From assembly GCA_045630985.1 (NCBI GenBank), contig JAZQTW010000015.1:10706-74705 (forward strand): DNA of 64,000 bases, read 5' to 3'. Made by a program: the position numbers and the translations under genes. The notes under the pieces are model-generated. The model made no database searches and had not been told where the DNA came from. It worked only from the letters and a program-made list of their open reading frames with translations. The stretch is from Alphaproteobacteria bacterium. Lineage in GTDB: Bacteria; Pseudomonadota; Alphaproteobacteria; RF32; CAG-239. Below, piece by piece: positions 2,894 through 13,475 of the stretch (position 1 is its first letter; each line of letters opens with the position of its first letter).

Positions 2894-4000
2894 ATGATGA
2901 AACCAAATTCAATTTTAGGCTCTTATTTGATAAAGCAAACTGTTTTGAGTTTTTTGAGTGTGTTGATGGTGATTTGTGCAATTATCATGATGTTTGATAT
3001 GATAGAGATTTTGCGCAAAACCTCTGGTAGATATGATGTTAGTATTTGGTTTTTGATTCAGTATGTTATAGCAAAATTGCCTGAAACAGTTGATAAAATT
3101 GTTCCTTTTGTGGTTATGATTTCTACAATGATTACATTTTGGCGCTTAAGTAAAATGAATGAATTTGTTATTATCAGAGCTGCAGGTGTTTCTATATGGG
3201 GAGTTCTAACACCTGTGTTGTTAGCTGTTTTTTCAATAGGATTGTTTTGGATTATGGTGGTTAATCCTTTTTCTTCAAGAATGTATGAATTGCGTGAAAC
3301 ATTATCTTATAGACTTAAAACAAATAATCCTGATGCGTTTTTGTTTTCTAATAAGGGGTTGTGGATTAGAGAAAGTTTGAAACCCGATGTTGTTTCCGTA
3401 ATAAATACAGGTGCTATAAATCTTAAAGATGATGTTTTGTGGTTGCAGGATGTTAGCATTATAGAAGTAGATGAAAAGATGCAAGTTACAAGAAGAGTAG
3501 AGGCGTTTATTGGTACATTAGGTAATGATGAATTAGATTTAAGGGATGTTAGAGTTTATAAATCTGGTCAAAAAGCTGAAATTATTAATAATATGAAATA
3601 TCCAACAAAGATGAGCTTGCAACGTATTAAGGATAACTTTGTTGATCCTGAAGCTATATCCTTTTGGAATTTGCCTGATACAATAGAATTTTATAAAGCG
3701 TCAGGGTTTTCTGTTCAAAGATATTTGATGCGATATATTAGCTTGATTGCTTTACCTTTTATGCTTATGGCAATGGTTTTGGTTGCAGGCATTTTCTCTT
3801 TGAAACCAAGTCAAAGACAAGGTGGTGTGTTAACTATGATAGTTTTTGGTATAGCAACTGGTTTTACTGTATACTTTACCTCGCAAGTTATATCAGCTTT
3901 TGGTGTAAATGCGTATATCCCAATATGGTTTGCGGTTTGGGCTCCAACTATTGTGGTTGCATCTATTAGTGTTTCTTACTATCTAAATAAAGAAGAATAG
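2894..4000 (+). CDS. LptF/LptG (YjgP/YjgQ) family LPS-export permease
   Basis: ~360 aa, N-terminal TM cluster, central periplasmic region, C-terminal TM cluster; family-typical N-terminus (YLxKQ...). Confidence 0.7.
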   Translation: MMKPNSILGSYLIKQTVLSFLSVLMVICAIIMMFDMIEILRKTSGRYDVSIWFLIQYVIAKLPETVDKIVPFVVMISTMITFWRLSKMNEFVIIRAAGVSIWGVLTPVLLAVFSIGLFWIMVVNPFSSRMYELRETLSYRLKTNNPDAFLFSNKGLWIRESLKPDVVSVINTGAINLKDDVLWLQDVSIIEVDEKMQVTRRVEAFIGTLGNDELDLRDVRVYKSGQKAEIINNMKYPTKMSLQRIKDNFVDPEAISFWNLPDTIEFYKASGFSVQRYLMRYISLIALPFMLMAMVLVAGIFSLKPSQRQGGVLTMIVFGIATGFTVYFTSQVISAFGVNAYIPIWFAVWAPTIVVASISVSYYLNKEE

Positions 4001-4435
4001 TTAAAATATAGAGATTATTTCTGCAGGTATTTTGGTTGGACGCATAGTTTCTAAGCTTAGAAATACTAAGGTTACTTCTATTTCAGATAACACGGTATCG
4101 CCACGATATAGTTTTTGTTCCATTTTTAATGAAACACCTTTTAATTCTGTTACTTTGCATGTTATGTTTAGTGCATCATCTAATTTTGCTGGTGATTTAT
4201 AGCTAATATGGCATTCTCTAACAACAAATCCGGCGCCTATATTTTTTAGCATGTTTTCTTGGCTAAATCCTAGATGACGAAGAAATTCTGTTCTAGCTCT
4301 TTCAGCAAATTTTAGATAGTTTGCATAATATACAATTCCTCCGGCATCTGTATCTTCATAGTAAACACGAATCGGAAAAGAAAATGTTTTATCATCAAAT
4401 AATTTACCTGTTATTGTATTTGTTTCATATGTCAT
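4001..4435 (-). CDS. ybgC: YbgC/FadM-family acyl-CoA thioesterase (tol-pal associated)
   Basis: hotdog-fold thioesterase N-terminus (RVYYEDTDAGGIVYYANYLKFAERARTEFL); position directly downstream of ruvB as in many alphaproteobacteria. Confidence 0.75.
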   Translation of the reverse strand: MTYETNTITGKLFDDKTFSFPIRVYYEDTDAGGIVYYANYLKFAERARTEFLRHLGFSQENMLKNIGAGFVVRECHISYKSPAKLDDALNITCKVTELKGVSLKMEQKLYRGDTVLSEIEVTLVFLSLETMRPTKIPAEIISIF

Positions 4436-4438
4436 AGC

Positions 4439-5494
4439 TTAAAATCCTAAATCTTCCATAAAACTAAATTGGTTGTTATCATTTTTAAATTTACTAACTC
4501 CAAGATATTTACATCCTTGTTCTGATAAAACACGTCCACGCGGTGTTCTTTGTAAAAATCCTAGTTTTAGTAAATATGGTTCAATTACTTCTTCTATTGT
4601 ATCTCGTTCTTCTGAAAGAGCTGCTGCCAGTGTATCAGCTCCAACAGGACCACCACCATAGTTTTTAGCGATACAATTTAGGTAACGGCGGTCAAATTCA
4701 TCTAAACCATAAGGGTCTACATCTAATAGGCTTAGTGCTTTATCTGCTATTGTAGAATCTATTTGTACGTTACCTGCAACAGCACCGAAGTCCCTTACTC
4801 TTTTTAATAATCTTCCTGCAATACGAGGGGTTCCGCGTGAACGCTTAGCAATTTCCATTGCGCCATCTTGAGATATTGGCATGTTTAATAAATTTGCACC
4901 GCGTAGAACTATTTTTTGTAAGTCTTCATGATTATAAAAATCCATGCGTAGAGGAATACCAAAACGTTCTCTTAGAGGTGTTGAAACAAGACCTGAGCGA
5001 GTTGTTGCACCAACAAGAGTAAAAGGTTGTAAATCTATTTTTACTGAACGAGCAGAAGGTCCTTCACCGATAATTATATCTAATTGAAAGTCTTCCATGG
5101 CAGAATATAAAACTTCTTCTATGGCAGGGTTTAAGCGGTGTATTTCATCTATAAATAAAACATCTTTTGCTTCAAGATTTGTTAATATGGCGGCCAAATC
5201 TCCAGATTTGGTAATCATTGGGGCAGAGGTTGCTTTAAATCCTACACCTAACTCTTTTGAGATAATGTTTGATAGAGTTGTTTTACCTAATCCTGGAGGG
5301 CCATATAAAAGTACGTGGTCTAAAACTTCTCCTCTACTTTTAGCAGATTCTATAAATACTTTTAGATTTTGGCATACTTTATCTTGGCCAACAAATTCAT
5401 CAAGACTAGATGGTCTGAGATTTATAGCAATAGGAGAGTTATTTTCATCTGTTGATAGTATTTGTGAGCTAACTATTCTTTCTTTATTTTCCAT
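4439..5494 (-). CDS. ruvB: Holliday junction branch-migration helicase RuvB
   Basis: [12 protein letters not shown], Walker [10 protein letters not shown], Walker [10 protein letters not shown], sensor and winged-helix regions conserved. Confidence 0.95.
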
Positions 5495-5502
5495 TTTTCC
5501 TC

Positions 5503-6162
5503 CTATTGATTAAATTCTTTAAGAGATAATCTTATCAATGTACCTAAATCTGCTGTTGGATTTTTTAGGCAAATTTCTGAGGCAACTCGGTATGCGTCTG
5601 TTCTTTGATATCCGAGATTAGTTAAAGCAGAAGTTACATCTTCTGTTTTTTGATAAATTTCATCATCTGTATCTGAAACTGTATTTTGAGGAGTAGGTTG
5701 TTTGGTTGGTGTTTTATCTTCTATATCAGATAATTCTGCTCCAGACATATATTCTATAGGGATTGTTACAATTTTATCTTTTAATTCTGTAACAAGTCTT
5801 GCGGCTAGTTTTGGACCAACACCAGATGCTCTTAAAAATGAACTTTTATCTTGTGCTGATACTGCTTGAGATAGTTGTGCAGGAGATAAAACACTTAATA
5901 TACTTAAACAAACTTTTCCGCCAACACCTTGTATTTTTGTGAGAGTGTTGAACCATTCTTTTTCCCATGCATTTTGAAAACCAAAAAGGGTGATACTATC
6001 TTCTTTTATAACAGTTTCTATTAATAAGGAAGAATATTCTCCTTGTTTTAGTTTAGAAAGTGAGCGAGAAGACATGTAAACAAGATAGCCAACGCCATTA
6101 ACATCTATTATTGCACAGTCTTCGCCAATGTTATCTATAATTCCTTTTAGTTTTGCAATCAT
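5503..6162 (-). CDS. ruvA: Holliday junction DNA-binding protein RuvA
   Basis: [29 protein letters not shown]-terminus, helix-hairpin-helix [10 protein letters not shown]; immediately upstream of ruvB. Confidence 0.9.
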
Positions 6163-6304
6163 AATACAATCCTTTTGTTGTTATGGTAAGAGTTTATAGG
6201 TGTTTGCTTTAGTCTTCAAGCGTTTTTTTATTTAGCACCCCTTTTTTTAGCCAAATTAAGGGTTATATCCGAAAGGTGTTTAATATAGCTAAAGGATTAA
6301 AGCG

Positions 6305-7450
6305 ATGATAAATTTAAAAACAGCGTTATTTGTTGCGTGTAGTGTATTGAGTGTTTCTAATGCGTATGCAAAAGATTTGGGTTTTTCTTATCAAGATTTT
6401 AAAAACAGTTTGAATAAAAAATATGGTTTTGATTATAGCATTGATGCTTCTGTTTTAGGGCAAAGAACTAGCCCTAGTGGAAAAAACAATGCTGTTCAAA
6501 CGTATATCTATCCATCATTTACGTGGACACTATCTGATGGTTCTAGAGGAATAGGCGTGTTGAATTTTGCTTATACCGTTATAAGATATGGAAATCATAA
6601 TGCTAATGATTTGGCAAACAATTCTGGTTTTGTTACACCTATAAATGATTACCCAGATAATGAAAATGAATTTAATGAATTGTATTATACGTATCAATTT
6701 GGAGGAAATTGGAATTGGTTAACATTAGCGCTTGGTCAGTTTCCTCTTTATAATTTTGATGGTACAGATTATGATGCAAATCAGCAGGTGAATTTTATAA
6801 ATGAATCTTTTTCGCAAAATGCTTCTGAAACATATACACAAGCAGGTCTTGGTGCATATGTTCAAATTACACCTAATGAGGAGTGGAGCTTTGCTTTTGG
6901 TGGACAAGATGGTACAAATATAGATGCTCAAAGTATAAGGTTTAATCATCTAAATAAGGAGCATTATACAACGTTTGGATATGTTGCATATACTCCAATA
7001 ATAAAAGGTTTGGGAGAGGCAGAAATCTCTGTTTTGGTCTATAATCAACCTTGGGTAAAAGAGCAACAGGAAACGACTAATGGTTGGTCGTTAAATTTAT
7101 CTCAAAATATTGGTGAAAAATGGTCAGTTTTTGCAAGAATTAACGAAACAAGCGGAAGTGTTGCGGAGATAAGGCAATCATGGGTGTTTGGTGGTGTTTG
7201 GAATAATCCTTTAGGGCGCAATAATTTAGACCAAATTGGTTTGGCGTATGCATATAATAAATTAGATGAAAAAGCTGTAGGAGAAAAGCTTAATCATAAA
7301 GCAGAGCAAGTTATTGAAGCATATTGGGCTTGGGGTGTTGGTGATATGCTAACGATTACTCCTGATGTACAGTTATATATAAATCCTGCGCTTAATCAGA
7401 AATCTGATTATGGGTTTGCAACAGGGGTTAGAGCAACAGTGTTTTTCTAG
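6305..7450 (+). CDS. outer-membrane beta-barrel protein / putative porin with signal peptide
   Basis: Sec signal peptide (…SVSNAYA|KD), alternating amphipathic beta-strand pattern, C-terminal aromatic residue (…RATVFF) typical of OMPs. Confidence 0.55.
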   Translation: MINLKTALFVACSVLSVSNAYAKDLGFSYQDFKNSLNKKYGFDYSIDASVLGQRTSPSGKNNAVQTYIYPSFTWTLSDGSRGIGVLNFAYTVIRYGNHNANDLANNSGFVTPINDYPDNENEFNELYYTYQFGGNWNWLTLALGQFPLYNFDGTDYDANQQVNFINESFSQNASETYTQAGLGAYVQITPNEEWSFAFGGQDGTNIDAQSIRFNHLNKEHYTTFGYVAYTPIIKGLGEAEISVLVYNQPWVKEQQETTNGWSLNLSQNIGEKWSVFARINETSGSVAEIRQSWVFGGVWNNPLGRNNLDQIGLAYAYNKLDEKAVGEKLNHKAEQVIEAYWAWGVGDMLTITPDVQLYINPALNQKSDYGFATGVRATVFF

Positions 7451-7632
7451 GAAATATTTGTAATTGCCACTCATTTGATAAAAATTTTAAATACATTGTT
7501 TAAATACGGTGTATAAAAAACTAACATACAAAAAATGCATTTTTCTTTGTGTATTAGTTTATTTTATTGATGTTTATTACATAAAATAGCAGTAATATTC
7601 GTTGGAAATATTTTGTAGAGGTTATAATAAAA

Positions 7633-8163
7633 ATGCGAAAATTACTGCTATTAGTTTTGTTATTTGTAATTACAGCTTGTCAATCTAAGCAAGTTTTTGT
7701 GCCTGCTGTTGTGCACAACGTTAATACAACGCAAGAAGTGATTGTAGAAAAGGCTCACTTGCCAATTATTGGAGAAGTAGAACCTATTTATTTTTTACCA
7801 ATGAAGTCTCCTTTTTATGCAAGAATAGATACTGGTGCAACAACATCTTCGCTTGATTGTGCTGATGTTGTTTATTTTGAGCGAGATGGTGAAAAATGGG
7901 TATCTTTTAAGCTAAAAAATCGTAAGACTGGCGAAGAACATGTGTTTGAGAAAAAGATTGAAAGAACTTTTAGGGTGAGACGTATTGGTAATGACGAAAG
8001 TCGTAAAGCTGTTAAGATGGATGTAAAAATGGGAAATGAGGTATTTAGTGCTACATTTTCTATTGCAGACAGACAAGGGTTTGATTATCAAGGTTTAATT
8101 GGTAGAAATGTTTTAACAGGGCGCTTTATTGTAGATACATCTACATCTCATACTTTGGACTAA
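7633..8163 (+). CDS. lipoprotein, retropepsin-like aspartic peptidase domain (DUF785 / 'ATP-dependent zinc protease' family that accompanies RimK-like ligases)
   Basis: lipobox LFVITAC; D-T-G-A motif in RIDTGATTSSL; size (176 aa) and gene neighbourhood (7TM-transglutaminase + ATP-grasp) match the described triad; RBS GAGG upstream. Confidence 0.6.
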   Translation: MRKLLLLVLLFVITACQSKQVFVPAVVHNVNTTQEVIVEKAHLPIIGEVEPIYFLPMKSPFYARIDTGATTSSLDCADVVYFERDGEKWVSFKLKNRKTGEEHVFEKKIERTFRVRRIGNDESRKAVKMDVKMGNEVFSATFSIADRQGFDYQGLIGRNVLTGRFIVDTSTSHTLD

Positions 8164-8179
8164 TAAGGAACTTTAAATA

Positions 8180-9724
8180 ATGAAAAACTGGGTTGGAAAA
8201 ATTTTTACTGTAAGAAAGGTGTTAAGCTTTTTTCTTTTGTTATCTATTGGGTTTGCTTGTTATAGTATAGACTACAAGATGAAATATTGGGGTTTTACTC
8301 TTTCTCCTAAGGTGTTGACTGATATTTGGGTCGTAGAGGCTAAGATATCTTTTGAAACAAATAATGAAAATGTAAAAGTTTCTCTAACTGTGCCAGATGA
8401 TAGACATGGTGGTTTTGATGTTTTGAGTGAAGAGGTTTTGGGTAAAGGTTATAAAATAACTCAAGATAAAGAAAATAGAAAAGTTATATTTGAAGGAAAT
8501 AATAAATCTGGCAAGCAAACATTATATTATCGATTAAATATTTATGATAGTTCTGAGGATAATGAGCTTGGTCAAGATAAGCCTAATAAGATAGAGCGTC
8601 CAGTTATGAGTGAGGAAGAAGCCTCTCAGATGAGAAAAGTTTGGGAACTTTCTGATATTCAAGATGGGAATAAGGTACAAAGGGTTATTAGAACAGTTAA
8701 TCAAGAGATGGTGAACCCTTCTATGAGTCTGATTTTGCCATTTAACTATTCTTCTAAAGAGTTTGCAGAAAAAATTATTCAAATTTTGGCGTTTAAGAAG
8801 ATTCCAGCACGTATTGTTAGAGCTTTGAAACTAGAAGAAGGTAAAAAGACTGAAAAGCTAGATATTATGGTTGAGGCTTTTTATGATGATAAGTGGACTT
8901 TGTATGACTTGAATACTGCTAATATTGGATTGCCAGAGAATTTTGTTGTTTTCCAAAGAGGTGGTGTTTCTTTGTTAGATGTTAGAGGTGGGGAAGATTC
9001 TAAAGTTAGATTTTCTGTGCTGAAATCTGTTGCAACTCCATTGAAGATGGCTGAACATAGAACAAAAAATAGCGGAAAAATTGCTAGATATAAATACTCT
9101 ATATATACATTGCCTGTTTTGGAGCAAAATACATTAAAGTGGTTGATGATTTTCCCGTTAGCTATTTTGATGGTGGTTATTATGCGTAATATTATTGGTG
9201 TTTCTACAATGGGAACATTTACACCAATGTTATTGGCTATGTCTTTGGTTAAAACTGGTTTTGTTTCTGGTTTGGTGTGTTTTTCTGTTATGATTTTACT
9301 AGGGTTAATTATGAGAGCAATGGTTGCGAAGCTAAATCTTTTGTTGGTTCCTAGAATTTCTTTTGTTGTGATCTTTGTTATTTTGTTAATTCAGCTACTA
9401 ACTATTATTGGTTATCGTATGAATTATGAGATTGTTAGCTCTGCTATTTTCTTCCCTATTATTATTACAGCTTGGATTATTGAAAGAGCATCTATTACAT
9501 GGGAAGAAGATGGAGCTATGAATACAATAAAAGAAATATTTAATACTCTTTTGACAGCTATTGTTACTTATTTTGTTATTAGTAATGAATATGTTCGTCA
9601 TGTTATGTTTGCATTTAATGAATTAAATATTGTTATAATGTTTATTGTGATGTTGCTTGGTACGTATACAGGGTATCGTTTGACAGAGTTGAAACGTTTT
9701 GCTCCTCTTATTAAAGGAAAATAA
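8180..9724 (+). CDS. membrane protein: N-terminal signal anchor, ~300-aa extracytoplasmic inactive-transglutaminase-like domain, C-terminal ~7 TM helices (7TM_transglut-type)
   Basis: hydrophobic N-terminus, long soluble region, then dense TM block WLMIFPLAIL...; RBS AAGGAA 8 nt before ATG; sits between the peptidase and ATP-grasp genes with 16-nt and 1-nt spacing. Confidence 0.55.
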   Translation: MKNWVGKIFTVRKVLSFFLLLSIGFACYSIDYKMKYWGFTLSPKVLTDIWVVEAKISFETNNENVKVSLTVPDDRHGGFDVLSEEVLGKGYKITQDKENRKVIFEGNNKSGKQTLYYRLNIYDSSEDNELGQDKPNKIERPVMSEEEASQMRKVWELSDIQDGNKVQRVIRTVNQEMVNPSMSLILPFNYSSKEFAEKIIQILAFKKIPARIVRALKLEEGKKTEKLDIMVEAFYDDKWTLYDLNTANIGLPENFVVFQRGGVSLLDVRGGEDSKVRFSVLKSVATPLKMAEHRTKNSGKIARYKYSIYTLPVLEQNTLKWLMIFPLAILMVVIMRNIIGVSTMGTFTPMLLAMSLVKTGFVSGLVCFSVMILLGLIMRAMVAKLNLLLVPRISFVVIFVILLIQLLTIIGYRMNYEIVSSAIFFPIIITAWIIERASITWEEDGAMNTIKEIFNTLLTAIVTYFVISNEYVRHVMFAFNELNIVIMFIVMLLGTYTGYRLTELKRFAPLIKGK

Positions 9725-9725
9725 G

Positions 9726-10673
9726 ATGTTTGATTGGTTTAAAAGAGCAAAAGAACTAAGAGAAAGCGGTGTTTTGGGCATGAATGACCGTAATTATTCT
9801 GTTATTGCAAAATATAATAAACGCTCTTTATATACTTTGGTTGATGATAAAGTTAAGACTAAAAGATTAGCTAATAGTATAAATATTAATACTCCTCGTA
9901 TGATTGGTATTATTGAATATCAATATCAAGTAAAAGATTTGTTAGATATTGTTAAAGGATATGATACCTTTGTTATAAAACCAGCTCATGGTAGCGGCGG
10001 AAAGGGCGTGTTGGTTATAAAATCTTATGATGGTGAAAAGTTTTATGCGGCATCTGGTGATGTTTTAACCTTTAAAGATGTATATCAGCATATTTCTAAT
10101 ACACTTAGCGGACTTTTTAGTTTGGGCGGTAAATATGATGTAGCCTTAATTGAAGAGGCGGTTAACTTTAGTGACGTATTTAAAAACTTTAGTTATCGTG
10201 GTGTGCCAGATGTTAGGGTAATTGTTTATAAAGGTTATCCTGCAATGGTAATGATGCGTTTGGCTACAAAAGAATCTGGTGGTAGGGCTAACCTTCATCA
10301 AGGAGCTGTTGGTGTTGGGCTGGATGTTAAAACCGGTAAAACATTGAATGCTGTTATGCATAATAAACAAGTATTAATTCATCCTGATACAGGTGCAAAT
10401 TTAATGGATTTGAAAGTTCCCTTTTGGAGAGAGCATTTGTTAATTGGTGCTAAAGCATACGATATGACTGGGTTAGGATATTTGGGTGCGGATATTGTGT
10501 TGGATAAAAATAGGGGGCCTATGATGTTAGAGATTAATGCTCGCCCAGGTTTGGCTATTCAGATTGCTAATGGCAAAGGATTAAGAACTAAGCTTGAAGA
10601 AATTGATGAATATTATCCAACAGGATTAACTGCAGAAGAACGTATTGATTGGGTGTTGAATTATGAAAAATAA
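9726..10673 (+). CDS. alpha-L-glutamate ligase-related protein (RimK-like ATP-grasp amidoligase)
   Basis: ATP-grasp motifs (VIKPAHGSGGKGV, ...GANLHQGA..., ...LEINARPGL...); start moved to ATG 9726 (RBS AAGGAAA) rather than the overlapping in-frame 9699 start. Confidence 0.8.
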   Translation: MFDWFKRAKELRESGVLGMNDRNYSVIAKYNKRSLYTLVDDKVKTKRLANSININTPRMIGIIEYQYQVKDLLDIVKGYDTFVIKPAHGSGGKGVLVIKSYDGEKFYAASGDVLTFKDVYQHISNTLSGLFSLGGKYDVALIEEAVNFSDVFKNFSYRGVPDVRVIVYKGYPAMVMMRLATKESGGRANLHQGAVGVGLDVKTGKTLNAVMHNKQVLIHPDTGANLMDLKVPFWREHLLIGAKAYDMTGLGYLGADIVLDKNRGPMMLEINARPGLAIQIANGKGLRTKLEEIDEYYPTGLTAEERIDWVLNYEK

Positions 10674-11334
10674 ATTCCTAAATATAATTTTAGTTTTAAC
10701 TTTGGTTGTAATTTTTAAGGGGTTAATTATGGTAGATGTTTTAGCAAAGAGCGAAACAAAGGCTTTGGATAAAGCTGATACAAAGAGTATTGGTGTAGAA
10801 GAAACTAAAAAAATTGAAGTAAGTGAAACGAGAGGAAAGAAAATGAAACATTCTTATAATGTAGTAGATGTAGAAAATTCTTTGGTTATGAAGTTAAAAG
10901 ATGGCGAAGTTGTAATTGAAATGATGCCAGATGTTGCACCTAACCATGTTGCAAGAATAAAAGAACTCGTAAGAGAAGGTTTTTATAATGGATTAAAGTT
11001 CCATCGTGTTATTGATGGATTTATGGCGCAAACTGGTTGCCCATTAGGAAACGGTACAGGTGGTAGTGGTAAAAAATTAAAGGCTGAATTTAATAGAGTT
11101 CCTCACACACGTGGTGTTGTTTCTATGGCTAGAGCAATGGATCCTGATTCTGCGGATAGTCAATTCTTTATTTGTTTTGATAATGCACCTCATTTAGATG
11201 GTCAATATACTGTTTGGGGTAAGGTTGTTAGCGGTATGGAATTTGTTGATAATATCAAAAAAGGCGGTGGCTATAATGGTATGGTATATCAGCCTGATGA
11301 GATTGTTAGTTTAGAAGTGATTGCAGATATGTAA
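10663..11334 (+). CDS. peptidyl-prolyl cis-trans isomerase, cyclophilin type, with N-terminal signal sequence (periplasmic)
   Basis: HRVIDGFMAQTGCPLGNGTGGSG and FFICFDNAPHLDGQYTVWGKVV cyclophilin signatures; hydrophobic N-terminus. Confidence 0.85.
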   Translation: MKNKFLNIILVLTLVVIFKGLIMVDVLAKSETKALDKADTKSIGVEETKKIEVSETRGKKMKHSYNVVDVENSLVMKLKDGEVVIEMMPDVAPNHVARIKELVREGFYNGLKFHRVIDGFMAQTGCPLGNGTGGSGKKLKAEFNRVPHTRGVVSMARAMDPDSADSQFFICFDNAPHLDGQYTVWGKVVSGMEFVDNIKKGGGYNGMVYQPDEIVSLEVIADM

Positions 11335-11335
11335 A

Positions 11336-11365
11336 ATGAAGGAGGCGTTAAGCCTCCTTTATTTT
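11336..11365. terminator. bidirectional intrinsic terminator between cyclophilin gene (+) and ruvC (-)
   Basis: GGAGGC-gttaa-GCCTCC hairpin flanked by A-run and TTTATTTT. Confidence 0.7.
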
Positions 11366-11852
11366 ATGCAATTTTAGAATTAAATGAATTTCTTAAGTTT
11401 GCGTGAGTGATGGCGATTGCTAGAGCGTCTGAAGAATCATTGTTTTTTGGTTTTGCTCCGGGGAGTAGTATTTTTACCATAGTTTCTACTTGAGTTTTAT
11501 CTGCTCTGCCAACTCCTGTAAGAGCTTTTTTTACCTTTGTTGGTTCATATTCATATAGCGGAATGTTATAAAGGGATGGCATTAAAAATACAACACCTCT
11601 TGCCATGCTTAATTTTAGAGAAGTTTCTGGGTTTGAGTTAAGAAATGTAACTTCAATAGAAGCTTCATTTGGTTTGTATGTTTCTATTACTTTTTGTAAT
11701 TCATTATGTATGATGTGAAGACGTTCTGATAATGGAAGTTTGTTTGATGTTGGAATAAAACCGTCTGCTATATAAGACAGACGGTTTCCTTCAACATCTA
11801 TTATGCCCCAACCTGTTGATGAAATACTTGGGTCTAGGCCTAATATACGCAT
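11364..11852 (-). CDS. ruvC: crossover junction endodeoxyribonuclease RuvC
   Basis: MRILGLDPSISSTGWGIID... RNase H-like fold N-terminus, catalytic acidic residues. Confidence 0.9.
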   Translation of the reverse strand: MRILGLDPSISSTGWGIIDVEGNRLSYIADGFIPTSNKLPLSERLHIIHNELQKVIETYKPNEASIEVTFLNSNPETSLKLSMARGVVFLMPSLYNIPLYEYEPTKVKKALTGVGRADKTQVETMVKILLPGAKPKNNDSSDALAIAITHANLRNSFNSKIA

Positions 11853-12692: not shown

Positions 12693-13475
12693 TTAGTCTT
12701 CTTCATGAGCTAGTTTATTACTCTCAAGAAGAAAAGCTGGTGTTCTCTTGCCAAATACTTTATATCTTTTTGCTAAATCTAGAGCTTTTTTATCTATATT
12801 TTCAGCTTGATTGGAATGTTTTTCTTTTTTGTTATTCTTTGGCATTTGTGGTTTGTTTTCTTTAATTTCTTGTACTTCGCTTTCTTTAGCTTTATCAACC
12901 TTTATTTCGCTAGGGGCTTTAAGAATTTTGTTTAATGTATCTTGTGTTTCTTTAGAGCGACGATTAGTGAAGATAATATTTTGTTTGTTTGCTGGAAGCA
13001 TATCCAAAATTTCATTTAGTTTTTTTAGTTGATGGTTCTTTTTGATTAAATTTATATCATCTACAACCAAAATATTGATATTAGAAATATCTACTCTTTC
13101 TTCTTTTATATTTTCTAACAACAAGTCAGGAGAAGCTATGATTACATTTGCTTCGCTATCTGTTGCTTCTACAGTATCATCATTTATTTCATGATATTTA
13201 TTAAAGATAGAAAATTTATCAGAAATATTTACAGACTCTCTAGAGCCTGGAGTGATGATTAAAATATTGTGTCCTTCTTTGTGGGATATTATATCTATAA
13301 GTGGGAAGATATATGAACAAGTTTTACCACAGGCAGCAGGTGCTATTGTAAAAACATCTTTTCCGGATAAAATAGATGGAATAACATCCTTTTGTACTGT
13401 TGTTGGTTTTTCATAACCTAAATCGTTTATTGCTTGAATTGTTTTTTCAGTAAGTCCCAAATCTTTAAAACTCAT
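12693..13475 (-). CDS. degenerate DEAD-box helicase N-terminal (RecA-like domain 1) protein with lysine-rich tail; no helicase C-domain
   Basis: Q-motif region (F..LGL...I...GYEKPTTVQ), motif I variant APAACGKT, motif Ib-like SPDLL, motif II degraded to VVDDIN (no catalytic Glu), ends in K/E-rich low-complexity tail. Confidence 0.6.
   Translation of the reverse strand: MSFKDLGLTEKTIQAINDLGYEKPTTVQKDVIPSILSGKDVFTIAPAACGKTCSYIFPLIDIISHKEGHNILIITPGSRESVNISDKFSIFNKYHEINDDTVEATDSEANVIIASPDLLLENIKEERVDISNINILVVDDINLIKKNHQLKKLNEILDMLPANKQNIIFTNRRSKETQDTLNKILKAPSEIKVDKAKESEVQEIKENKPQMPKNNKKEKHSNQAENIDKKALDLAKRYKVFGKRTPAFLLESNKLAHEED

Follow-up and report, generated by a model that had tools for sequence, protein, structure and literature searches.

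An rloABC Operon, With Conserved Neighbors, in an Alphaproteobacterium of the Animal Gut

A three-gene cassette in a 64-kb stretch of alphaproteobacterial DNA (hereafter, the window) encodes, in this order, a retropepsin-like aspartic peptidase (RloA), an inactive transglutaminase-like membrane protein (RloB), and an ATP-grasp ligase (RloC). The genes are real and make up an rloABC operon, a system that was named, and in part characterised, in Pseudomonas aeruginosa in 2025 and in which rloB and rloC are PA14_41710 and PA14_41730 (Lormand et al., mBio 2025, PMC12239564). The locus is a new lineage copy of this known system, not a new kind of system, and by itself opens no new question; the order of its genes, the families they belong to, their motifs and topology, and their conservation are directly supported. 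On balance, the most likely mechanism is that RloC makes an acidic peptide, which RloB links to the envelope and RloA trims. The system is said to have been first predicted computationally by Iyer et al. in 2009.

The rlo Genes and Their Products

The three open reading frames (ORFs) are co-directional, as had been described, and are separated by 16 nt and then by 1 nt (Table 1). AAGGA ribosome-binding sites lie 5′ of rloB and rloC, and the two genes meet in a TAAGATG junction at which rloC is translationally coupled to rloB. A longer, TTG-initiated rloC ORF is possible from 9699; the ATG start is backed by conservation from Met-Phe onward and by its AAGGA site. All of the protein families named in the original prediction, made for this locus from its sequence (PF05618/RloA-like, Transglut_i_TM plus 7TM_transglut, and TIGR02291) were matched in profile searches.

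Table 1. Features of the rlo region, with positions in the window
Feature	Position	Strand	Description and evidence
ruvA	5503-6162	-	
AaxA/OprB-like outer-membrane porin	6305-7450	+	Pfam OprB 2.6e-12; NCBIfam porin AaxA 7.9e-87
Tandem direct repeat TTTAAATAC-N4-TTTAAATAC, period 13	7486-7507	+	-147/-134 from rloA ATG; alignment of 28 porin-rloA spacers
Conserved spacer block TTGTG.ATTA...TTGATGTTT...TAAAA	7547-7598	+	>=70-90% column conservation, 28 relatives
rloA, retropepsin-like aspartic peptidase, predicted lipoprotein	7633-8163	+	176 aa; PF05618 match, lipobox, DTGA
rloB, inner-membrane protein, TM anchor + inactive transglutaminase-like domain + 7TM	8180-9724	+	514 aa; Transglut_i_TM + 7TM_transglut
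rloC, cytoplasmic RimK-related ATP-grasp ligase	9726-10673	+	315 aa from ATG; TIGR02291, Pfam ATPgrasp_ST
ppi, cyclophilin-type peptidyl-prolyl isomerase, N-terminal hydrophobic signal/anchor	10663-11334	+	Pro_isomerase 6.2e-44
GC-rich hairpin AAGGAGGC-GTTAA-GCCTCCTT	11339-11359	.	Between convergent ppi and ruvC; T-rich stretch on each strand
ruvC	11364-11852	-	

RloA matches PF05618 (6.2e-27; 94.6 bits, cut-off 27) and, with scores under their narrow cut-offs, the NCBIfam models RloA3 (2.4e-28; 98.9 bits, cut-off 210), RloA2 (8.5e-18; 64 bits, cut-off 250), RloA1 (54.5 bits, cut-off 280), and RimB (9.8e-15). Its matches in the PDB are 9g59 (3.4e-13), 9g58 (5.2e-12), and 2pma (2.6e-5). That the first gene encodes a lipoprotein with a D-T-G-A motif is borne out by hydropathy and pattern analysis, which place a hydrophobic segment at residues 5–23 and an I-T-A-C16 lipobox at the N-terminus, and by the catalytic motif D66-T-G-A69. 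Cys16, Arg64, and D66–A69 (R64-x-DTGA) are invariant in 82 of 82 orthologues, Arg124 and Arg147 are kept in 81, and the strict lipobox pattern is found in 62. Local motif alignment to 9g58/9g59, rather than structure superposition, identifies Arg64, Arg124, and Arg147 as the counterparts of Lys46, Arg114, and Arg137 of P. aeruginosa RloA, basic residues that coordinate poly-Glu. RloA is predicted to be a periplasmic, signal-bearing lipoprotein, unlike the cytoplasmic RimB.

RloB, an inner-membrane protein, joins seven transmembrane (TM) helices to an inactive transglutaminase-like domain in the periplasm, with a β-sandwich ahead of that domain. Hydropathy and an AF2 model recover the anchor, ectodomain, and C-terminal TM block that had been proposed: an N-terminal TM segment (residues ~8–37), the ectodomain (~38–312), and a C-terminal helical block (313–512). 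There is no cysteine in ectodomain residues 30–300, nor any conserved ectodomain Cys among 41 homologues. The ectodomain therefore has no Cys-His-Asp catalytic triad, as was anticipated, and RloB does not qualify as an active transglutaminase or papain-like cysteine peptidase. The NCBIfam RloB model gives 263 bits, which does not reach its cut-off of 900, and identity to the gammaproteobacterial copies compared (Aeromonas, Legionella) is 28–32%. The most conserved part of the protein is the 7TM block, which has many charged or polar residues within its membrane helices; R336, E435, R436, E442, R473, E481, R500, and E503 are examples of charged intramembrane positions that do not vary.

RloC scores above the curated cut-off of TIGR02291 (‘alpha-L-glutamate ligase-like’; 3.5e-125, 417 bits, cut-off 314), in agreement with its assignment as an ATP-grasp protein nearest to alpha-L-glutamate ligases, and also matches ATPgrasp_ST (1.8e-87, 293 bits). 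P. aeruginosa RloC is presumably also a member of TIGR02291. The conserved ATP-grasp motifs are FVIKPAHGSGGKGV, ANLHQG, and GADIVLD..RGPMMLEINARPGL, and hydropathy analysis finds no hydrophobic segment. The distinction from ordinary RimK that had been drawn for this gene is upheld by scores well under the RimK cut-offs (NF007764, 24.8 bits vs. 331; TIGR00768, 38.8 vs. 143). In a low-confidence model (pLDDT 65.7), the nearest solved fold is RimK (7qyr, E 6e-6; 5zk6). Most of the N-terminal domain of RimK appears to be missing from RloC, a point that, because the model is poor, rests on phmmer local alignments. Weak sequence or fold matches include D-Ala-D-Ala ligases, a pseudomurein ATP-grasp model, and cyanophycin synthetase.

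Conservation, Neighboring Genes, and Candidate Regulatory Sites

The A-B-C order is kept in 75 of the 75 species-level relatives with enough flanking sequence; given this tight colinearity, the arrangement is far from chance, and the conserved synteny that had been expected is present. The cassette thus occurs in every adequately flanked species-level genome of a large uncultured radiation of gut Alphaproteobacteria, and its gene order recurs in Lentisphaerota, Planctomycetota, Aeromonas, and Legionella. Its occurrence in both gut Alphaproteobacteria and PVC-group bacteria, beyond the Gammaproteobacteria from which it was described, argues for a general envelope function rather than one specific to Pseudomonas. 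The nearest named relatives outside the radiation are from Lentisphaerota/Planctomycetota, not Gammaproteobacteria, as judged from few named clusters and a rough neighbor-joining tree of nine sequences. The host of the window is an uncultured, low-GC alphaproteobacterium of the animal gut.

The cassette had been placed between ruvA and ruvC; both genes do flank it, but a porin and a cyclophilin gene also lie within the interval. This position is conserved among closer relatives, and the cassette is therefore not a recent insertion. Nor is it typical mobile-element cargo: a plasmid collection yields just two matches, one on Legionella adelaidensis plasmid 5 and the other on an Aeromonas chromosome that is listed there as a plasmid. 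Within the 64-kb window there are no extra rloA, rloC, or rimK paralogues, and no poly-Glu or acidic runs that would be candidate RloA substrates among its ORFs. An Rfam scan of the window returns three tRNAs only and shows neither a riboswitch nor a leader close to the cassette.

The porin (292 bits against NCBIfam AaxA, under the 600-bit cut-off) lies immediately 5′ of rloA in 43 of 76 relatives and farther upstream on the same strand in 23 more. Ten of these 23 loci were inspected, and in each an additional gene separates the porin from rloA, on the minus strand in nine and on the plus strand in one; these intervening genes lead to rejection of porin–rloA co-transcription as a general rule. 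The porin is a conserved upstream neighbor, probably in a separate transcription unit.

At the other end, the cyclophilin gene (hydrophobic segment, residues 8–26) overlaps the end of rloC by 11 nt. It lies within 120 nt 3′ of rloC in 67 of 74 relatives and farther downstream in six more, whereas the Aeromonas, Legionella, Lentisphaerota, and Mucisphaera cassettes have no cyclophilin gene beside them. In this lineage, the rlo transcript probably includes the periplasmic cyclophilin as a fourth gene. A terminator scan finds nothing at the rloC–ppi junction, scores a weak terminator-like stem-loop within rloC (10143–10159), and calls the hairpin between ppi and ruvC on the minus strand; on the plus strand, the hairpin is followed by TATTTTAT. 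It is likely a bidirectional terminator that closes the rlo transcript.

The tandem repeat upstream of rloA is a candidate transcription-factor site. Its exact pattern is found 5′ of rloA in 25 loci, and most loci with RloB at least 67% identical to that of the window carry two to five exact or one-mismatch copies of TTTAAATAC, usually 13 nt apart; the clade with 50–58% RloB identity has none, except that a few loci have one copy with one mismatch. Because the 9-mer, counted singly, shows no enrichment in the window (4 found, 3.4 expected), the argument for a site rests on conservation, not on statistics. The conserved spacer block closer to rloA probably contains the operon promoter region, and the remainder of the spacer aligns poorly across the 28 relatives. 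No convincing sigma-70 −35/−10 pair was assigned in this block, and a sigma-70 promoter scan is not above shuffled sequences (26 found, 26.3 expected).

Proposed Function and Alternative Explanations

In P. aeruginosa, RloA cuts stretches of eight or more Glu in vitro (Lormand et al., 2025, PMC12239564), and in vivo it requires both the catalytic Asp and the basic residues; the defects of a triple-protease mutant are suppressed when rloB or rloC is deleted (PMC12239564). The Rlo phenotypes concern cell shape, β-lactam sensitivity, and hypo-osmotic lysis, and the authors raise peptidoglycan homeostasis (PMC12239564). The original prediction is partly supported: its family assignments stand, whereas its description as uncharacterised is out of date for the system as a whole.

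By transfer of this function to the window organism, which we infer, RloC would use ATP to build up an acidic peptide. The likeliest product is alpha-linked poly-L-glutamate, which would be free or attached to a carrier as a tail. RloB would couple the RloC product to the envelope via export, or via binding and presentation. RloA, held in the periplasm by a lipid anchor, would act as a retropepsin dimer whose substrate channel is basic, cutting long Glu runs and thereby limiting or recycling the product. Unprocessed product would harm the envelope, leading to hypo-osmotic sensitivity, shape defects, and β-lactam sensitivity.

Amidation of the cell wall or of a glycopolymer would assign other roles to the same proteins: RloC would join an amino acid to a carboxylate of a peptidoglycan precursor or envelope sugar acid, RloB would flip or position a lipid-linked intermediate, and RloA would have a peptide stem, or regulators of peptidoglycan enzymes, as its target. 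Consistent with such a role are the name that Pfam gives to the RloC family (‘Sugar-transfer associated ATP-grasp’), the D-Ala-D-Ala ligases and pseudomurein model among the weak RloC matches, and the P. aeruginosa phenotypes together with their authors’ suggestion. However, the top RloC matches are alpha-L-glutamate ligases, not Ddl or Mur enzymes; the specificity of RloA for stretches of eight or more Glu is proven, and the window protein keeps the basic residues of the channel; and none of the approximately 90 loci examined has a cassette-linked glycosyltransferase or Mur-type gene. Amidation is unlikely.

It is very unlikely that the cassette is a signalling module that makes no bulk polymer, with RloB as a 7TM sensor that binds an envelope ligand through its dead transglutaminase domain, and with RloC and RloA modulating the signal, for example by placing a Glu tail on a signalling protein and removing it. 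RloB does combine 7TM helices with an extracytoplasmic domain of a ligand-binding type, but it has no recognisable output domain, and its conservation peaks inside membrane helices rich in charged and polar residues, a pattern more in keeping with a transporter or membrane enzyme than with a receptor. Links to regulators are several: a divergent set of a BOF protein, an OmpR-type regulator, and a PhoQ-like kinase beside the cassette in CAG:977-type relatives, the conserved direct-repeat site 5′ of rloA, the operon of RloA2 with creBC that is predicted in P. aeruginosa, and the regulation of V. cholerae rlo by VxrB (PMC12239564). A regulated effector operon would show such links just as much.

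An ordinary RimK/RimB pair for S6 glutamylation with a merely adjacent membrane protein is suggested by the homology of ligase and peptidase to RimK and RimB, but has next to no probability and is effectively refuted by the model scores (those of RloC against RimK, and RimB NF052261 at 54.6 vs. 200 bits), a lipoprotein signal conserved in 82 of 82 orthologues, a membrane-protein gene that always lies between the peptidase and ligase genes, and a P. aeruginosa rimB deletion without genetic interaction with rloA mutants.

With synthesis by RloC, coupling by RloB, and trimming by RloA as the preferred reading, a broader proposal that we consider quite unlikely is that gut Alphaproteobacteria possess a larger envelope module, consisting of the AaxA-like porin, RloA-RloB-RloC, and the cyclophilin under a clade-specific direct-repeat operator. 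Periplasmic poly-alpha-glutamate, made and turned over by this module, would then serve as a fixed-charge osmoprotectant, with the porin passing released glutamate or oligo-glutamate, and the cassette may have moved between gut Lentisphaerota and Alphaproteobacteria, making an origin in Gammaproteobacteria unnecessary. If this is true, the poly-anionic peptide would be the equivalent, in peptide form, of the osmoregulated periplasmic glucans. The Rlo system influences osmotic tolerance, cell shape, biofilm formation, and β-lactam sensitivity in a major pathogen, and the conserved companions found here (cyclophilin, amino-acid-type porin, and operator-like repeat) are new handles on its substrate and regulation.

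Comparison With Known Systems

The window locus and P. aeruginosa rloABC share a PF05618 retropepsin with a signal, an inactive transglutaminase–7TM protein, and a cytoplasmic ATP-grasp protein in identical order, as well as the catalytic DTG, the basic substrate-channel residues, and tight gene coupling. Relatedness is at the family level only, with window scores under the NCBIfam RloA and RloB cut-offs; since these are narrow, Pseudomonas-built ‘equivalog/exception’ models, the window proteins are distant homologues and still members of the wider family. The window differs further in its gut alphaproteobacterial host, in a predicted lipoprotein RloA (the Aeromonas copy also has a lipobox), and in the addition of a cyclophilin to the probable transcript, an upstream AaxA-like porin, and the TTTAAATAC tandem repeat. 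P. aeruginosa has three redundant rloA paralogues, whereas the window has one rloA in 64 kb.

The rimBK/rimABK systems consist of the RimK alpha-L-glutamate ligase and the RimB aspartic peptidase and act in poly-glutamylation of ribosomal protein S6. They share with rlo the homologous ligase–retropepsin pair and a synthesise-and-trim logic, and among solved structures RimK comes nearest to RloC in both sequence and fold. RimB is, in contrast, cytoplasmic and has no membrane partner, and RloC fails the RimK models; if the rlo peptidase is periplasmic, S6 cannot be its target. With respect to RloB, 3ISR (a transglutaminase-like ‘putative cysteine protease’ of Cytophaga hutchinsonii) and TgpA-type membrane transglutaminases differ in that the window ectodomain lacks the cysteine and the triad and is fused to a 7TM block without a close solved relative. 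The systems for poly-gamma-glutamate (Pgs/Cap) and cyanophycin share with rlo the idea of a non-ribosomal amino-acid polymer that has an ATP-dependent ligase for its synthesis and a dedicated peptidase for its cleavage. Their components are unrelated, PgsBCA being Mur-ligase-like membrane proteins, and the Pgs/Cap linkage is gamma, whereas that of the proposed Rlo polymer is presumed to be alpha from the relationship of RloC to RimK and from the substrates of RloA.

Identity and organization of the rloABC cassette

The three-gene cassette of the window is rloABC, a copy from a new lineage of a system that was already named and partly characterized. The three open reading frames occupy the positions and strand originally predicted, with the same 16-nt (rloA/rloB) and 1-nt (rloB/rloC) gaps (Table). 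AAGGA ribosome-binding sites precede rloB and rloC, and the rloB stop and rloC start form the sequence TAAGATG. A TTG start at 9699, which would lengthen rloC, is probably spurious: conservation in 77 orthologs begins only at the Met-Phe of the ATG. The GC content of the cassette (0.31–0.35) is that of the remainder of the window.

RloA matches PF05618 (6e-27) and, among NCBIfam retropepsin-like peptidases, RloA3, RloA2, RimB, and RloA1 in descending order. RloB matches Transglut_i_TM (2e-25) and 7TM_transglut (2e-77) and aligns over its full length with the NCBIfam model "osmotic stress tolerance membrane protein RloB." RloC matches ATPgrasp_ST (2e-87) and TIGR02291 "alpha-L-glutamate ligase-like protein" (417 bits; curated cut-off, 314) and scores far under the cut-offs of the RimK models, which sets it apart from ordinary RimK. 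Therefore, none of the outcomes that the original prediction had named as contrary to it was found; its observation is correct and its family-level interpretation right. The system is no longer solely computationally proposed, as it had been described: RloA activity and operon genetics have been shown in Pseudomonas aeruginosa (PMC12239564).

As predicted, RloA has the features of a lipoprotein with an aspartic-protease motif: a hydrophobic N-terminus with the lipobox I-T-A-C16, followed by R64-I-D66-T-G-A69. Cys16, R64, and DTGA are invariant across 82 orthologs, and R124 and R147 are each present in 81. In phmmer comparison with 9g58/9g59, R64, R124, and R147 fall on the motifs K-L-D-T-G, aRPVI, and tDRSaF, which, in our reading, contain K46, R114, and R137, the residues required for poly-Glu cleavage and in vivo function (PMC12239564). 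RloC has no hydrophobic segment and retains the ATP-grasp nucleotide and Mg motifs. Its closest solved sequences and folds, although distant and with a poor RloC model, are RimK of E. coli and P. aeruginosa; RloC 37–100 aligns locally with RimK 95–156, which suggests that most of the RimK N-terminal domain is missing.

Coordinates of features in the window and in compared loci (numbered L)
Locus	Feature	Position	Strand	Remark
Window	AaxA/OprB-like porin	6305-7450	+	upstream of rloA
Window	TTTAAATAC-N4-TTTAAATAC	7486-7507		tandem repeat, period 13; porin–rloA spacer
Window	second conserved block	~7547-7598		porin–rloA spacer
Window	rloA	7633-8163	+	176 aa
Window	rloB	8180-9724	+	514 aa
Window	rloC	9726-10673	+	315 aa
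Window	cyclophilin-type PPIase	10663-11334	+	N-terminal hydrophobic segment
Window	GC-rich hairpin	11339-11359		directly after PPIase gene
Window	helicase-like gene	12693-13475	-	260 aa; adjoins yebC
L038	gap gene (one of several examples)	4301-5275	-	
L042	gap gene	4233-5282	-	
L044	gap genes	3077-4093, 4208-5257	-	
L048	gap gene	4349-5278	-	
L059	gap gene	4045-5397	-	
L049	rloC–cyclophilin insertion	8499-9125		
L054	rloC–cyclophilin insertion	9122-9559		
L073	rloC–cyclophilin insertion	8527-8967		
L078	rloC–cyclophilin insertions	8531-9124, 9199-9639		
L003	BOF/OmpR-type/PhoQ-like genes	3805-6167		
L088	complete rlo-type cassette	5414-8342		NZ_LR134414.1
L090	EAL-domain gene	3050-4126	as rlo	CP036280.1

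Conservation and neighborhood in gut alphaproteobacteria

The closest RloB homologs (54–92% identity; nearest, JAZNKG010000029.1, 92%) are from uncultured animal-gut MAGs labeled Alphaproteobacteria, "Acetobacter sp. CAG:977," "Candidatus Scatocola," or uncultured Rickettsiales, Rhodospirillales, or Azospirillum; some others belong to genomes that are obviously mis-binned. Among 80 species-representative loci, the order A-B-C, which had been set beforehand as a test, is tight and colinear in each of the 75 that have sufficient flanking sequence. The placement between ruvA and ruvC, originally deemed unexpected, is real. Most loci of the clade in which RloB is at least 67% identical keep the ruvA and ruvC/yebC flanks, and the cassette is thus a stable resident there, not a recent insertion. 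By eye, the helicase-like protein encoded beside yebC looks like a DEAD-box helicase reduced to its N-terminal half, with a Walker A-like APAACGKT, VVDD in the DEAD position, a lysine-rich C-terminal half, and no helicase C domain; its positional counterpart in L001 matches PF00270 (DEAD).

Downstream, the PPIase gene shares its first 11 nt with the end of rloC; it lies within 120 nt 3′ of rloC in 67 of 74 relatives and farther downstream in six more. The hairpin that follows could terminate both convergent units. In a few species, same-strand HD/HDOD, NUDIX, or flavodoxin-like genes lie between rloC and the cyclophilin gene (Table); this junction therefore tolerates insertions.

The porin gene is immediately upstream of rloA in 43 of 76 relatives and more distant in 23 more. 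In all ten of the latter that were inspected, an additional gene that could not be annotated occupies the gap. Because this gene runs on the minus strand in nine of the ten, the porin gene counts as a conserved neighbor that need not be co-transcribed with rloA. The porin sequence fits the NCBIfam model for AaxA, the arginine/agmatine-system porin of Chlamydia, far better (8e-87, below cut-off) than it fits generic OprB (3e-12). This is not typical of an alphaproteobacterium and could be relevant to amino-acid traffic. The gap gene, absent from the window, is variable in many of the 23 relatives (305–510 aa, minus strand) and tandemly duplicated in L044 and L047; three examples scanned against Pfam gave no match. 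Those of L038, L042, L044, and L047 encode a basic N-terminus, one TM segment, and shared NYCVAGAM...GHPNVSCP...NTSSGEHCVTC motifs (variants in L048, L049, and L054; none in L059, L062, L077, and L085), which could mark a Cys/His enzyme.

In the 182-nt porin–rloA spacer, TTTAAATAC forms a tandem repeat. Most species of at least 67% identity have two to five copies of it, exact or with a single mismatch and typically spaced by 13 nt, between about -130 and -170; the deeper clade has no copies except single one-mismatch ones in a few loci. The second block is likewise conserved in most of the former species and is essentially absent deeper. Judged from sequence, the two may constitute a clade-specific candidate operator plus promoter region. 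The 9-mer alone is not statistically enriched within the window, and no sigma-70 promoter could be assigned in the spacer.

Wider distribution

Searched in full with HMMER (E ≤ 1e-10), 1.84 billion cluster representatives yield 1,070 RloB-like clusters; the few named ones nearest the gut alphaproteobacterial clade (36–43% identity) are from Lentisphaerota, Victivallales, and the planctomycete Mucisphaera calidilacus. Complete genomes of Lentisphaerota bacterium ZTH and Mucisphaera also carry A-B-C. All three window proteins are somewhat nearer to these copies than to those of Legionella, and RloA and RloB are also nearer to them than to those of Aeromonas (tblastn identities for Lentisphaerota, Mucisphaera, Aeromonas, and Legionella: RloA, 41, 41, 34, and 22%; RloB, 39, 36, 32, and 30%; RloC, 52, 50, 51, and 49%). 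None of these four cassettes has the porin or cyclophilin alongside. A rough NJ tree places the gut clade beside a Victivallaceae cluster, which hints at cassette exchange among gut bacteria, sampling and tree being too thin for a claim. With the same reservation, this placement fits awkwardly with the suggested gammaproteobacterial origin of rlo (PMC12239564); the main text of that paper does not mention Alphaproteobacteria, Lentisphaerota, Planctomycetota, or cyclophilin. What is added here is context: the cassette is strictly conserved over a gut alphaproteobacterial radiation, is accompanied by a cyclophilin and a porin, has an operator-like repeat upstream, and has relatives in the PVC group.

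In Mucisphaera (L090), two minus-strand genes lie between rlo and an EAL-domain gene some 1.3 kb upstream of the cassette. The Pseudomonas rimABK operon likewise encodes an EAL protein, RimA; the likeness may be coincidence. The Legionella adelaidensis cassette (L088) is on a 54-kb record filed as plasmid 5 and adjoins two C1-family peptidase genes; the label "RimK/LysX family protein" on its RloA-like gene looks like a mis-annotation.

Function and comparison with known systems

The rloABC operon of P. aeruginosa, reached via the NCBIfam model names, was defined by Lormand et al. (mBio 2025; PMC12239564). RloA and two paralogs are signal-bearing retropepsin-like dimers; crystal structures 9G58 and 9G59 have been deposited for PA0462 and the P. 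fluorescens ortholog Pfl01_1762, and purified P. aeruginosa RloA cuts runs of eight or more Glu in vitro (PMC12239564). The three proteases are jointly needed for salt-free growth, normal shape, biofilm formation, and beta-lactam tolerance, and deletion of rloB, for the inactive transglutaminase-7TM protein, or of rloC, for the ATP-grasp protein, suppresses the triple-protease mutant (PMC12239564).

A make–export–trim cycle is the best-supported working model. Cytoplasmic RloC would make an acidic peptide; its relation to RimK and the specificity of RloA point to poly-alpha-glutamate as the likeliest product. RloB would link this product to the periplasmic side, where lipid-anchored RloA would trim it. 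Untrimmed product would harm the envelope, which would explain why loss of RloB or RloC rescues protease-less cells. The location, motifs, and coupling are present in the window; protease specificity and epistasis would carry over from P. aeruginosa, in which they were demonstrated. Modification of peptidoglycan or another glycopolymer, the main alternative, would suit the cell-wall-type phenotypes and the family name "sugar-transfer associated," but the poly-Glu specificity of RloA and the lack of glycosyl or Mur genes linked to the cassette argue against it. A purely signaling role for RloB is less likely, as is an ordinary RimK/RimB role; the latter reading fails the family-membership tests.

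The neighborhood differs in a CAG:977-type relative at 55% identity, where the core adjoins divergent genes for a BOF protein, an OmpR-type regulator, and a PhoQ-like kinase; in the CAG:977-type loci L003, L004, and L005, such genes, the BOF protein being periplasmic, replace the porin and cyclophilin, and L041 has the same upstream 9-mer variant as these three. SipA (VCA0732) of V. cholerae is presumably a BOF-family protein. The CAG:977-type flank recalls the V. cholerae SipA/two-component polymyxin response and the literature-reported control of rlo by VxrAB.
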